This document shows positions 41,180-47,437 of a DNA stretch of 54,797 bases, piece after piece. Position numbers and translations under genes: made by a program. Numbering within the stretch: the first letter of the stretch is position 1; each line of letters begins with the position of its first letter. The stretch spans positions 1 to 54,797 of the forward strand of contig JBFIJL010000001.1 in NCBI GenBank assembly GCA_041600755.1, in the 5' to 3' direction. Under the pieces are notes generated by a model. It was not told the DNA's origin. It did not search any database and was given only the letters and a program-made list of their open reading frames with translations. The stretch is from Candidatus Saccharimonadales bacterium. Its GTDB lineage: Bacteria; Patescibacteriota; Saccharimonadia; Saccharimonadales; JAXHNE01.

Positions 41180-41482
41180 CTAAACATCCAAAAAGACAAC
41201 TACCTCATCAGCCTTAACGTGCATTACGCCTTTCTGAATAGGGATGCTCTCGTCATTCTTATCTGTTCTTACAATGATGTCACACGGCTGCAAAATAGTA
41301 ATGAAGTTATGGTGCTGAGCCAATATGTCGAAAGGACCAGTTTCATTCTCGGCCGTAACGCTGGTTGCAATACCATCGAAATAGACCTTAAACGGTGCAT
41401 AGATCTTCACGTGCATGTGCTTTCCATCAACAGGAGTGTTCTCGTTGGTATCAGAAATTGTTTTCCCAGATTCTTGAGCCAT
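41180..41482 (-). CDS. atpC: F1-like ATPase epsilon subunit (N-terminal beta-sandwich only)
   Basis: V.I.AP....FDG....V......G...IL..H..F...L pattern; no C-terminal helices. Confidence 0.8.
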   Translation of the reverse strand: MAQESGKTISDTNENTPVDGKHMHVKIYAPFKVYFDGIATSVTAENETGPFDILAQHHNFITILQPCDIIVRTDKNDESIPIQKGVMHVKADEVVVFLDV

Positions 41483-41484
41483 AG

Positions 41485-42795
41485 CTAAGCAATAATTTCT
41501 TCTATCGATTGCAGTGTTTGTTCACGGGTAAATAAGTCACCCTCCACACCGTTGTGCTTGGTCATCACATTCATGTTTTGAGTAAAGTTTTTAATAAGTT
41601 TTTTGGCTTTTGCGTAATCAGATCGGTCGGCAGCCGATAATTCGTTCTCACCAATAATCGCAATGATGCTCTTGAGCGATTCATACTTCTGAAGTAGTGC
41701 TTGCACCTGAACGCTCAGCAAGTAGTGTCTGTCGCCAACAATTTCTGGAGTCAAGAGTGCGGAAGATGTCTGGTTTAGATCAACCGCAGGCCTAATACCC
41801 TGCTCTGCAACTTTACGCGACAATACAATGATTGAGTCCAGCTCATGTTGAATCATCTGCACGGCCGGGTCGGACAAATCATCTGCTGGTACATAGATGG
41901 TCTGCACAGACGTAATCGAACCATTTTCGTTTGAACTTAACCGGTCCTGTAGTACTTTAATGTCTGAAAAAATTGTTGACTCGTAGCCGCCCTCGTTTGG
42001 CACTTGGTCTAGAATTGTCGACAGTTCATTCCTAGCCTGAACAAAGCGATACATGTTATCAGCAAAAAACAGAATATCCTTATTTTTCTCATCTCTAAAG
42101 TGCTCTGCTGCTGCAACTGCAGAAATACCAATCAATGATCGAACCACTGGATTTTCATTCATTTGCCCAAAAAACATACAGGTGTTTTTGAGCAGGTCAT
42201 TTTCTCGCAACGTGTCCCACAGTTCATGACCCTCACGAATACGCTCACCAATGCCTGCGAAGAAGGACAATCCGCCCCCGGTTTGGGCAATGTTGTTAAT
42301 AAGCTCCATGGTTAGTACCGTTTTACCAACGCCGGCACCACCGATAATACCGATTTTACGCCCTTTTACGAATGGCGTAAAAAAGTCGATAACCTTGATA
42401 CCGGTCTCTAAAATTTCTGGTTTTGAAACCGTAAAATTGGATGACCTAGGCGGAATCTTTAAAATATCTTTATACTGCTGCGACTCCGAAGCTTCAACCG
42501 CAGGCTGGCCATCGAGCGGGTCGCCAATTGCATCAAGAATCCTTCCAATCGTGGCATCGCCCACCGGGATCTCTATACCCTTACCGGTTCGATTGGCTCG
42601 CATTCCTCTCTGAATTCGTCTATCTGAGCGGATATTTAGGCAAAGAGCAATACCATGTGGTTCAAGGTGATCTACTAGTAATTTGGTGTTGAACCCATTG
42701 TCGATCTCTAAAACTTCATTGATTCGTGGCGAGTCACCGTCGAATCGCACGCGGACTACCAGGTCTTTAATTGATGATACTATGCCGGGATTCAT
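41485..42795 (-). CDS. atpD: F1-like ATPase beta subunit (short, divergent)
   Basis: [46 protein letters not shown]; DELSEED replaced by ENELSAAD. Confidence 0.93.
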
Positions 42796-43649
42796 TATGT
42801 CCTCTTCGCTTTCTTCATACCAATGATCAATTCTTTCAAACGGGTGTCTTTTATTGCACGCTTGGCACGGTTATATGATAAATGCACTTCTGAACGCGCC
42901 TCTGTGGCACGGGTATGCGAGGCGGACATCGCTCGAAAACGCGAAGCGTACTGGGCAAGTTTTGAATTTAGGATTAGCTGACTGACGGCAATTCTGAGCA
43001 TTGAGCTTTCCAGGTGATCGACCACGTCATAGGTGCTTGGCTCAAATATATAATTTTCTTCCGATATGAAATCCCCACCAGCCTCACTGTCTTTTCCCTT
43101 ATCTTGAACTGCATTACTGAGCTCAATTGATTTTACTTCTTGAGTCATCAGTGAAACATACTCCTGATAAAACACTACTGTATCGCGATAACGCTGAACC
43201 CAATGAATAATCGGCGTTACATTTATATTCTGGTCCTTGGTTGGAAGCTTGAAATACTGCTCATACGATATGCCCCGCTGTGCCAATTGAATTGCACCGT
43301 GATGACCAATAACAATAATGTCATTTTTTTCCTTATCATATGTCTTCATCATAAGCTTGATGAGCTTCTGGTCGATATCACCACTGAATCCACCCTCTGC
43401 AGTAATGATCACGTACAGTTCTTTATCAATGACATCAATGTCGGTTTGACTGCGACCAAAACGGAACAAGCTATCCACGCGAAGTTGTGAGTAGATGTGC
43501 CAAAGTGCATCGAAAAAAGTGGTAGCTTGAAGTACCTGATTTTTAATCTGAGCGATCCTCATACTGGCGATACCTTCAAAGACACCCGTAAGCTCAACAA
43601 GAGTAGCCATAGCCTTTTCCTCAGATTCATACTCTTGTGGGCGCTTCAT
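42795..43649 (-). CDS. atpG: F1-like ATPase gamma subunit
   Basis: N- and C-terminal coiled-coil helices, [27 protein letters not shown]. Confidence 0.85.
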
Positions 43650-46532: not shown

Positions 46533-46557
46533 AGTCCCACCCTCATAATGCTTTTGG

Positions 46558-47391
46558 TTATAACTTCAGTAATAAATATACCCCAAAAACACCGACAATG
46601 AAAATAATTAGACCAACAATAATAACTTGAATCATGCCTCGAATGATAGACTTCTTGCTCAGCGGATTTCGGCCAATGGATGTAATTGCGCTTCTAACGC
46701 CTCCGTATAATAAACTCCCTGACACAATAGTGCTCATGACGAGCAGCGCCATACTTAGCCACAACTTCGGTGTACTTACTTTTTTCTGAGCAATAGACTC
46801 GGCGGCATTTCGCAAAAATTCTGGCAAATTTTGAGCTGGCGGTTTTTGCAGCGGATTGCCAGACACGCTAATGTCTGCAAGAATCCGGCCAACCTGAAAA
46901 CTTTGATCCCCGACAGATATCGACCCAATCGCGTCTCCGCCACCCTCAAAAGGATCAAGAGCTCTAGCCACAACAATTGGTTGCACTTCATCCACCTTCA
47001 TGCCGATACCGCTAACTGATGAAATAACAATGTAGTCACCGGCAGAAATTGATCCGTTCTGATTGCTAACCAAGATATCAAACTTACCGTTTGCTGCTAC
47101 GAATACTTGCTGTGCCTCTGTCGACAAGGTGGCGGGAGCATCATTTCTATCTACGACAACTCCGTAAGCACCTTCTGCTTCACCTTGTGCAACCGGTGAA
47201 ACTTTGGTCGTGTCATCGTCGTTAAGTTTCACGATCATTCCACGCTGGAGCGGCACATCAGACGCGTAGCCTTGTGTGAATGGTTGAGCAAAGGCAATAT
47301 TAACCCTGAAACTAAGTGCTATAAGCAGTATGAGCGCAAGTCCTGCCCAAAGTCGTTGAGGTGTTAAAAGTTGTTTTATGTTTGTTTTCAT
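46558..47391 (-). CDS. Subunit-c-like fusion protein: N-terminal signal/anchor, extracytoplasmic beta domain and C-terminal c-like helical hairpin without ion-binding carboxylate
   Basis: atpE position; two terminal TMs joined by SIGRNP; no D/E in the last helix; middle domain VSNQNGSISAGDYIVISSVSGIGMK...VARAL. Confidence 0.65.
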   Translation of the reverse strand: MKTNIKQLLTPQRLWAGLALILLIALSFRVNIAFAQPFTQGYASDVPLQRGMIVKLNDDDTTKVSPVAQGEAEGAYGVVVDRNDAPATLSTEAQQVFVAANGKFDILVSNQNGSISAGDYIVISSVSGIGMKVDEVQPIVVARALDPFEGGGDAIGSISVGDQSFQVGRILADISVSGNPLQKPPAQNLPEFLRNAAESIAQKKVSTPKLWLSMALLVMSTIVSGSLLYGGVRSAITSIGRNPLSKKSIIRGMIQVIIVGLIIFIVGVFGVYLLLKL

Positions 47392-47407
47392 GAGATTTTC
47401 TACAGTC

Positions 47408-47437
47408 AGTATACGAAACCATAAGGGTTAAGTGCAA
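47408..47437 (-). promoter_or_regulatory. Promoter of the F1-like operon
   Basis: TTGCAC (47437-32), 18 bp spacer, TATACT (47413-08), 16 nt before the ATG. Confidence 0.55.

Follow-up and report, generated by a model that had tools for sequence, protein, structure and literature searches.

Repurposed F1-like motors have been thought specific to mycoplasmas. There, the Type 3 F1-like X0 ATPase (MMCAP2_0575-0581 / MSC_0614-0620) is needed for MIB-MIP antibody cleavage (Beven 2012, PMC3369863; Berlureau 2026, PMC12994834), and the MSC_0618/MSC_0619 family has been described as mycoplasma-specific, while the Type 2 G1-ATPase of Mycoplasma mobile (MMOB1610-1670) is the gliding motor. In another part of the bacterial tree, nearly all Patescibacteria are said to retain an F-type ATP synthase although they lack a respiratory chain, and the reason for this has been asked (PMC11665869; PMC10633639). 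Here, we analyse a stretch of 54,797 nucleotides from a Candidatus Saccharimonadales bacterium (contig JBFIJL010000001.1, positions 1 to 54,797; referred to below as the window), the minus strand of which carries, at positions 41180-47391, a seven-gene F1-like ATPase operon that lacks subunit a. We propose that this operon probably encodes a motor, rotary or torsional, that hydrolyses ATP without ion coupling and works at the cell surface through a c-like ring. An ATP-driven surface motor rather than an ATP synthase had been put forward in the initial annotation of this DNA, and the present analysis supports that reading as far as sequence goes.

Examination of the list of open reading frames (ORFs) revealed a single, tightly packed operon in which every frame is intact and consecutive genes either overlap or lie 2-25 nt apart. 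The genes run in the order c-like (g1), b-like (g2), delta-like (g3), alpha, gamma, beta and epsilon, as first annotated, and the assignments are borne out by the ORFs together with Pfam and NCBIfam matches and hhalign comparisons. The operon contains no ORF for subunit a, and there is no space for atpB or atpI in front of g1, since the interval between g1 and the upstream flanking gene, an iscS-like cysteine desulfurase (47452..48591, minus strand; PF00266, E = 3e-54), is exactly 60 bp, the distance given at the outset. With all seven genes accounted for, no polytopic membrane protein is encoded within the operon or its flanks in the window. The promoter that the initial annotation placed directly before g1 has fared less well. 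The element TTGCAC-18 nt-TATACT, read from the sequence, is present within the 60-bp gap (47408..47437, minus strand), 16 nt before the g1 start, but it agrees with 8 of 12 consensus positions and, being below threshold, was not reported by the promoter scan, whose hits in this region were not above those in shuffled sequences. A promoter upstream of g1 is plausible, but the evidence for it is weak.

The host genome (807 kb in 6 contigs, 97.7% complete) was found to hold a full canonical atpB-E-F-H-A-G-D-C operon with strong family scores on contig C2. Its atpE carries the expected Glu (...AFVEATAL...), and its atpB is the only PF00119 gene of the genome, so that the search for a second operon or an orphan atpB, envisaged in the initial annotation, has a definite outcome. 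The operon in the window is therefore a second, extra machine. The canonical operon has peculiarities of its own. At C2:81000-93000 (L007), it is broken up by small ORFs without a Pfam match, encoding 111 and 158 residues between atpA and atpG, 158, 141, 74 and 84 residues between atpG and atpD, and 83 residues before atpC; comparable inserts occur in the canonical operons of other Saccharibacteria (L043, L050, L051 and L052). The canonical delta subunit is short in these Patescibacteria (L007:8140-8520 and L040-L054), with 124-152 residues in all but one locus compared with 177 in Escherichia coli, and matches only the C-terminal two thirds of PF00213. A short Patescibacterial delta has likewise been remarked upon in a 2026 preprint by Mulkidjanian.

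The beta-like, catalytic subunit of the window operon (436 residues; 41485..42795, minus strand; PF00006, E = 1e-62) was aligned to those of E. coli and the canonical paralogue. Walker A, the GERIREG motif and the Walker B Asp are intact, and the alpha-like, non-catalytic subunit (544 residues; 43646..45280, minus strand; PF00006, E = 1e-63), which has the P-loop GDSKSGKS, keeps its arginine finger (SVTRIGG), so that the residue alignment agrees with the catalytic motifs first read by eye. The departures from the canonical enzyme noted then are also real. In beta, the DELSEED motif has become ENELSAAD and the C-terminus is some 25 residues shorter than in canonical subunits. The epsilon-like subunit (100 residues; 41180..41482, minus strand), which matches PF02823 at residues 23-98 (E = 6e-14), consists of the beta-sandwich domain alone, without the C-terminal inhibitory helices, whereas the canonical atpC product of the same genome has 141 residues. 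In alpha, the canonical AIGQK is replaced by MIAKR. Together with the gamma-like central stalk subunit (284 residues; 42795..43649, minus strand; PF00231, E = 1e-28), all of these subunits fall under the NCBIfam equivalog cut-offs, with 375 versus 484 bits for alpha (TIGR00962), 420 versus 463 for beta (TIGR01039), 82 versus 194 for gamma (TIGR01146) and 43 versus 67 for epsilon; the canonical paralogues score 719 and 797.

The catalytic residues are kept across operon lineages that share only 35-40% identity, and the window beta is 84% identical to that from another family of the same order. The operon family is marked, moreover, by derived residues that are absent from canonical subunits: AIGQK to I(A/G)K(R/K) and DDLSK to DDL(S/T)(S/T/N) in alpha, and GM(D/E)ELS to GE(N/S/Q)ELS in beta. 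The F1 part is predicted to be catalytically competent for ATP hydrolysis, and the loss of the inhibitory helices of epsilon fits an enzyme that runs in the hydrolysis direction only. The alpha chain, whose length varies from 470 to 575 residues among relatives, has at its end a Lys/Glu-rich tail of low complexity, roughly 70 residues long (43646-43860). This is one of two tails of variable length in the operon family, the other being the Ala/Pro/Thr-rich tail of the delta-like subunit (45277-45400 in the window).

The first gene of the operon is g1 (277 residues; 46558..47391, minus strand). The initial description of this gene as c-like holds for its C-terminal hairpin, but the gene as a whole encodes an exported fusion protein, in which a cleavable signal peptide (nt 47284-47391, cleavage site AFA/Q) is followed by a beta-rich ectodomain of about 150 residues (nt 46822-47283), an amphipathic helix and a two-helix hairpin (nt 46561-46773) with a GRNP loop (nt 46663-46674; G240, R241, N242 and P243). 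Queried with the whole protein, Pfam, NCBIfam and PHROG returned no family match, PF00137 being absent at E <= 0.1. Homology was supported by profile-profile comparison, in which g1, g2 and g3 were each aligned with their homologues at related loci and the alignments were set against atpE, atpF and atpH, respectively, from canonical Patescibacterial operons. The g1 C-terminus matches atpE over the loop region with a probability of 90.8% (E = 1e-6); a reversed-sequence control gave 0.4%. An AlphaFold2 (AF2) model of g1 (pLDDT 83) consists of a signal helix, a beta-rich domain (residues 39-178), a short helix and a helical hairpin (residues 207-276). Following superposition with Foldseek on the c subunit of Chloroflexus aurantiacus (9itt_I), the hairpin gives a TM-score of 0.88 and a root-mean-square deviation of 1.1 Å. 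In the same search, the ectodomain was found to resemble phage capsid decoration or cement proteins (Sf11 and T1; E = 1e-4).

The loop of the hairpin is the same as that of canonical atpE, and G-R-N-P is unchanged throughout an alignment of 24 g1 sequences that are 21-58% identical to the window copy. The ion-binding site has gone. Helix 2 of g1 contains no acidic residue and hence no membrane carboxylate, and a mid-membrane acidic residue is missing from all 16 operon-linked copies examined, the Glu at P+12 of one of them (L028) lying near the cytoplasmic end of the helix. Among 147 diverse representatives of the family (clusters below 50% identity), 146 lack the helix-2 carboxylate, whereas all canonical Patescibacterial atpE sequences examined have Glu or Asp in this helix. 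These comparisons identify the hairpin as a c-subunit homologue in which the presumptive F1-docking loop has been kept and the ion site lost. The AFA/Q cleavage site and the Lys and Arg residues that border the loop point to the topology of a c subunit, with the loop cytoplasmic and both termini outside, which would place the ectodomain on the cell surface.

With 1217 homologues after clustering at 90%, called hypothetical wherever they are named, and 1212 clusters at 50% identity (E <= 1e-30), g1 belongs to a large family. In the remaining one of the 147 representatives, P0288, position P+17 of helix 2, which is the canonical ion-binding position of c subunits, is occupied by Asp. A second g1 paralogue of 274 residues is encoded elsewhere in the same genome (C6:2362-3186, minus strand), without ATPase linkage and beside apparent rplU and ileS genes, and similar unlinked paralogues occur at L027:9990-10856 and L030:2961-3860. 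The unlinked Saccharibacteria paralogue keeps GRNPL; one Glu lies midway along its helix 1 (..IAEGG..) and another at P+9, neither of which is found in operon-linked copies. Residues 40-160 or so of the g1 ectodomain also find matches within giant ORFs of 1000-5700 residues from numerous Patescibacterial genomes (G049, G344, G032, G200, G315 and others), and the ectodomain appears to be a common surface module of the Candidate Phyla Radiation (CPR).

The two genes that follow g1 in the operon have no direct Pfam match. The g3 product (210 residues; 45277..45909, minus strand), which ends in the Ala/Pro/Thr-rich tail described above, is assigned as delta/OSCP-like by hhalign, with a probability of 96.4% (E = 1e-9) against Patescibacterial atpH over the OSCP C-terminal domain and 0.1% in the cross control; its homologues were also detected by BLAST in distant CPR operons. 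The g2 product (206 residues; 45912..46532, minus strand) has one N-terminal transmembrane (TM) helix and a long helical region, as in a b-type peripheral stalk. It matches 84 C-terminal columns of Patescibacterial atpF with a probability of 76.5% (E = 2e-5; cross control 0.2%), gives a weak NCBIfam match to alt_F1F0_F0_B (E = 0.009) and keeps its position across loci. Its assignment as b-like is moderately supported.

To follow the distribution of the operon, we surveyed an even sample of 401 Patescibacterial genomes, with subunit a searched as PF00119 and subunit c as PF00137. The operon is widespread in the CPR. Full-length g1 with its hairpin occurs in about 46 of the genomes. In 15 of the 20 loci retrieved, it adjoins the b-like, delta-like and F1 genes, whose arrangement is unchanged or almost so; these 15 loci represent at least six of the families sampled. 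Of the g1-positive genomes, 17 have no atpB; 15 of these have no PF00137 c subunit either, the other two having a V-type proteolipid. The alpha and beta content was examined in five of the 17. In four of them, three from WWE3 (G057, a candidate division WWE3 bacterium, G326 and G378; family f54) and one from family f12 (G198), the only alpha and beta genes are the two of this operon, no PF00119 or PF00137 gene is present and the homologous operon is the sole F/V-type ATPase; one further match of about 107 bits in the alpha/beta search of each genome we take to be Rho. The fifth genome (G022) has a V/A-type ATPase as well. Because the operon is found in genomes without any a or c, its completion by an Fo encoded elsewhere is excluded; the scenario, raised in the initial annotation, in which an atpB and a normal atpE at another locus complete the complex is contradicted by these four relatives. 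As the operon is the only rotary ATPase in the four, they probably carry out no chemiosmotic ATP synthesis, and no ATP-driven proton extrusion, by an F/V-type enzyme.

The order of the window organism includes 15 g1-positive genomes, and a second beta, 55-84% identical, was found in all 14 that were checked, while the g1-negative genomes of the order, which belong to one family, have only a canonical-like beta (39-45% identity) or no beta. Two g1-negative genomes, G383 (C1:105288-106565) and G010 (C5:73193-74089), have an extra beta-like gene, again at 39-45% identity, with no alpha listed beside it. In WWE3, the operons are flanked by rplA (L1), rplK (L11) and nusG; these conserved flanking genes were considered as partners of the ATPase and rejected on account of their identity.

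The relationship of the operon to known rotary ATPases was explored in an IQ-TREE analysis of 72 alpha and beta sequences, which included canonical Patescibacterial and E. coli subunits, and by comparing scores against hidden Markov models (HMMs) and PDB entries for the mycoplasma Type 2 and Type 3 and the N-ATPases. In both halves of the tree, that for alpha and that for beta, the canonical Patescibacterial and E. coli sequences form clades with 100% support that exclude the operon subunits. The latter fall into two groups, a Saccharibacteria type and a WWE3/f12/f32/f113 type. The window beta scores 420 bits with the atpD model, 379 with N-ATPase beta, 369 with mycoplasma Type 3 beta and 336 with Type 2 beta, and reaches the cut-off of none of them; against F1 betas in the PDB it scores about 350 bits, compared with 274 bits against the beta of the M. 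mobile G1-ATPase (9io5). Relative to atpD and atpA, the scores with the mycoplasma HMMs are no better than would be expected of a third divergent lineage. On the placement asked about initially, the tree and the scores support the view that the operon F1 is a separate divergent lineage outside the canonical F-, N- and mycoplasma Type 2/3 families. A recent duplication of the canonical operon was considered and rejected on the tree and on the 36-40% identity to the paralogues.

On the plus strand, convergent with the operon, lies the gene of a membrane-anchored tail-fibre-like protein of 309 residues (40225..41154), whose stop codon is 25 bp from that of epsilon. Homologues 26-59% identical occupy the same convergent place beside the operon in 8 Saccharibacteria loci. 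The protein gives a weak match to a bactofilin-type beta-helix, and neither it nor its small neighbours have a PHROG match. It is followed by a Pam-type, that is, chaperone-assisted donor-strand, pilus operon (34056..40263, minus strand), recognised by paralogy, conserved synteny and the fold of the chaperone. All on the minus strand, this operon encodes three paralogous secreted subunits (39379-40263, 37162-38541 and 36078-37118), a TM protein of 229 residues (38642-39331), a membrane-anchored chaperone-like protein of 328 residues (35025-36011) with homologues that match PF06030 (DUF916), and a PKD-like TM protein (34056-34949), which has weak PKD matches and may be a second chaperone or a membrane anchor. 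The whole block of ATPase, fibre and pilus genes is bracketed by iscS and mnmA (32982-34040; PF03054, E = 1e-77).

The Pam pilus has been described for Ca. Mycosynbacter amalyticus and other CPR bacteria in a preprint (Troman et al. 2026, PMC13278184). There, pam operons co-localise with 'ATP synthase subunit' genes and with a gene for a tail-fibre-like protein, to which the fibre protein of the window corresponds, an arrangement conserved across Saccharimonadia; a related chaperone-guided donor-strand pilus has recently been shown for DUF916 and WxL proteins of Enterococcus. In the AF2 model of the chaperone-like protein (pLDDT 85), two beta-sandwiches are followed by a TM helix (residues 295-320) at the C-terminus, and its best PDB matches in Foldseek are enterococcal WxLIP (9i1y, E = 2e-11) and several chaperones of chaperone-usher systems, namely YadV, CfaA, Caf1M and CsuC. 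The modelled protein fits PamC/PamD as characterised in PMC13278184. A search of PDB sequences with two of the pilin-like neighbours gave no match, and the neighbours are set beside PamA-E by description only.

Fibre and pilin genes adjoin the ATPase operon in 8 Saccharibacteria loci, even where the upstream flank differs, and are never found beside the canonical operon. Three further Saccharibacteria genomes, G277 (L055), G063 (L057) and G186 (L058), have a bare iscS-g2-g3-alpha-gamma-beta-epsilon-mnmA arrangement, their g1 being encoded at another site. One of the three has g1 next to the gene of a 2055-residue protein that shares the C-terminal region of the fibre protein, and in another genome g1 has been relocated behind epsilon, next to the fibre gene. 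Hence g1 travels with both the fibre and the ATPase modules and links them. The bare iscS-to-mnmA arrangement looks like the ancestral frame that received the surface module in the window.

In the mechanism we favour, g1 would oligomerise into a c-ring-like rotor crowned by its ectodomains, and ATP hydrolysis by beta would turn gamma-epsilon and the g1 ring against a b/delta stator. Without ion coupling, the free energy would be spent on turning or twisting the extracellular crown. The load in Saccharibacteria would be the adjacent tail-fibre-like protein, the Pam-type pilus or both, as their conserved synteny suggests, and the work done on these structures might be to anchor, rotate or tension them or to help in their assembly. 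A bolder form of this proposal can be framed, which we advance only tentatively and think doubtful. It holds that F1 spins a carboxylate-free c-ring whose crown, similar to phage decoration proteins, serves as base or clutch for the Pam pilus and the fibre, so that ATP hydrolysis in the cytoplasm would rotate, wind or retract the appendage with which the epibiont holds its host. The complex would then add a third type to the rotary surface machines of prokaryotes, and it would follow that many Patescibacterial 'F-type ATP synthases' are not synthases.

Several observations weigh against an ion-uncoupled surface motor. In the absence of subunit a, the stator has no evident anchor in the plane of the membrane against which net work could be done, and the ring formation and rotation of g1 are features that we infer from sequence. 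The support for g2 as a b subunit is moderate. Helix 2 of g1 has a conserved polar residue at its cytoplasmic end (Gln at P+12 or Asn at P+13), for which we have no explanation. On the deep branching of the two operon groups, the alpha half of the tree disagrees with the beta half; the common origin of the Saccharibacteria- and WWE3-type operons therefore rests on synteny, on the homology of g1 and g3 and on the derived residues. The three bare Saccharibacteria loci have no g1, fibre or pilus genes in cis, and the WWE3 operons have housekeeping flanks, so that a role specific to the pilus is not general: the pilus link is lineage-specific. Finally, a search of sequencing runs found the locus only in marine DNA metagenomes and in no RNA run.

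The difficulty of anchoring the stator would vanish if free spinning were not needed, as in an ATP-driven assembly or export platform. In such an arrangement, the g1 oligomer would be a static or stepwise base, equivalent to an usher or anchor in a monoderm, for the Pam pilins or the fibre, and F1 would supply conformational energy in the manner of FliH/I/J. The b/delta, alpha/beta and gamma subunits are homologous to FliH, FliI and FliJ, and type III secretion system ATPases are indeed among the matches in our HMM and PDB searches. The tight linkage of the operon to a donor-strand pilus whose model, as set out in PMC13278184, has no trans-envelope machinery would also be accounted for. Nevertheless, an alpha3beta3 heterohexamer with an intact gamma is a rotary and not a homohexameric export architecture; gamma and epsilon occupy its central axis, c-type rings are plugged with lipid and no conduit is evident. 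Moreover, the pilins carry Sec signal peptides, donor-strand exchange is ATP-independent according to the same preprint, and the WWE3 operons have no pilus or fibre neighbours. We regard a platform of this kind as unlikely. The conserved polar residue of helix 2 suggests a different possibility, a cryptic ion-translocating ATPase or synthase using a non-carboxylate site in g1, such as this Gln or Asn, with an unrecognised stator channel, or else drawing on a Glu-bearing, unlinked g1 paralogue. Patescibacteria reportedly keep 'ATP synthases' without respiratory chains (PMC11665869), unlinked Saccharibacteria paralogues, including that at C6:2362-3186, have the Glu in the middle of helix 1, and one member of the g1 family has an Asp at the canonical P+17. 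The polar residue, on the other hand, lies at the cytoplasmic end of the helix and not in mid-membrane, the unlinked WWE3 paralogue has no helix-1 Glu, the a-less genomes that were checked contain no PF00119 gene anywhere, and none of the lineages examined has a conserved polytopic membrane protein encoded within the operon or next to it. We know of no c-ring that functions without a carboxylate, and consider cryptic ion translocation quite improbable.

Since the genome does encode a canonical a and c, and the GRNP loop of g1 is that of canonical atpE, the operon could in principle supply an alternative F1 head and stalk that docks onto the canonical Fo under some conditions, with g1 as an accessory. 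Use of the canonical Fo was rejected on the genomes that have the homologous operon and no a or c; in addition, the operon brings its own c-, b- and delta-like genes at the atpE-F-H positions, and g1 co-occurs phyletically with the second beta. We would give docking of this sort very little credence. It is harder still to believe in a decaying or functionless duplicate of the ATP synthase genes, or in a soluble ATPase that spills energy and has no output at the membrane, as the sub-cut-off scores of the four F1 subunits and the shortening of beta and epsilon might suggest. All seven frames are intact and translationally coupled, the catalytic residues persist between lineages only 35-40% identical, grounds on which a pseudogenised operon was rejected, the beta shares 84% identity with its counterpart from another family in the order, and g1 belongs to a large family in which the docking loop is invariant.

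An ion-uncoupled motor acting at the cell surface would have consequences for how these genomes are read. Part of the 'F-type ATP synthase' signal of Patescibacteria would come from this a-less machine, and, if the bolder form of the proposal is true, many annotated Patescibacterial 'F-type ATP synthases', apparently including all of those in most sampled WWE3, would not be synthases, which would change the bioenergetics of the phylum. Our literature searches gave no description of an F1-like ATPase in Saccharibacteria, Patescibacteria or WWE3. Here, a repurposed F1-like motor would have arisen independently, and far more widely than in mycoplasmas, in reduced, host-dependent monoderms. The operon would also offer a concrete, testable candidate for what powers or anchors the Pam pilus, which is implicated in host contact and, in PMC13278184, modelled without envelope machinery. 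If the motor is real, an ectodomain-bearing c-ring would be the first rotary ATPase with its output outside the cell.

Comparison with described systems brings out what is shared and what is not. Similarity to canonical F1Fo (atpIBEFHAGDC) extends to the gene order, an alpha3beta3-type head, central and peripheral stalks and the GRNP hairpin. The window operon differs in having no subunit a and no atpI, in a carboxylate-free c-like hairpin that forms part of a fusion with a signal peptide and a 150-residue ectodomain, and in an F1 with no inhibitory helices in epsilon, a degraded DELSEED and shortened C-terminus in beta, and an altered AIGQK in alpha. The N-ATPase (atpDCQRBEFAG) is likewise a second, divergent F-type operon beside a canonical one, but it keeps subunit a and an ion-binding c, has AtpQ and AtpR, lacks a separate delta and has another gene order, and the operon subunits miss its HMMs by wide margins (379 versus 752 bits for beta with TIGR03305, 318 versus 750 for alpha with TIGR03324 and 22 versus 282 for gamma). 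The Pam locus shares with the window a membrane-anchored, PapD/FimC-like chaperone, a tail-fibre-like gene and 'ATP synthase' genes, which PMC13278184 reads as ATP production coupled to pilus assembly; the accessible text of that preprint does not report a second, a-less operon with a carboxylate-free fusion of c hairpin and ectodomain.

The nearest parallels lie with the mycoplasma enzymes. The G1-ATPase of M. mobile is an F1-like ATPase repurposed for ATP-driven surface motility and adhesion, and its cluster includes a protein with a signal peptide and two TM helices (MMOB1650). Unlike the window complex, it forms intracellular dimeric chains with PGK, and its beta has a large N-terminal extension; the Type 2 HMMs for MMOB1660 and MMOB1670 were missed, with 313 versus 600 and 336 versus 850 bits. 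The Type 3 enzyme is, similarly, a second F1-like ATPase that accompanies a true ATP synthase in a host-dependent monoderm with a reduced genome; it has alpha-, beta-, gamma- and epsilon-like subunits, no a and a function linked to surface proteins. The layout of signal peptide plus two TM helices in g1 recalls MMCAP2_0577 and MMOB1650, a likeness of architecture; NCBIfam gives no match for g1. The Type 3 cluster lacks a c homologue, which the window operon has in g1; it encodes a 12-TM protein and a small cytoplasmic one but nothing homologous to b or delta, whereas the window has b- and delta-like subunits and no 12-TM protein. Its gene order (12-TM, small protein, gamma, epsilon, signal peptide-2TM, alpha, beta) is also different, and its HMMs were missed, with 369 versus 570 bits for MSC_0618 and 250 versus 520 for MSC_0619. 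Pfam recognised no MIB-MIP or gliding genes among the neighbours in the window, no search having been aimed at them. With its peripheral stalk and c-ring homologue retained, the operon would represent an intermediate of more readable mechanism between ATP synthase and the F1-like X0 enzymes. Overall, our best reading is that the operon resembles the mycoplasma F1-like X0 ATPases in function, without being a member of their family.

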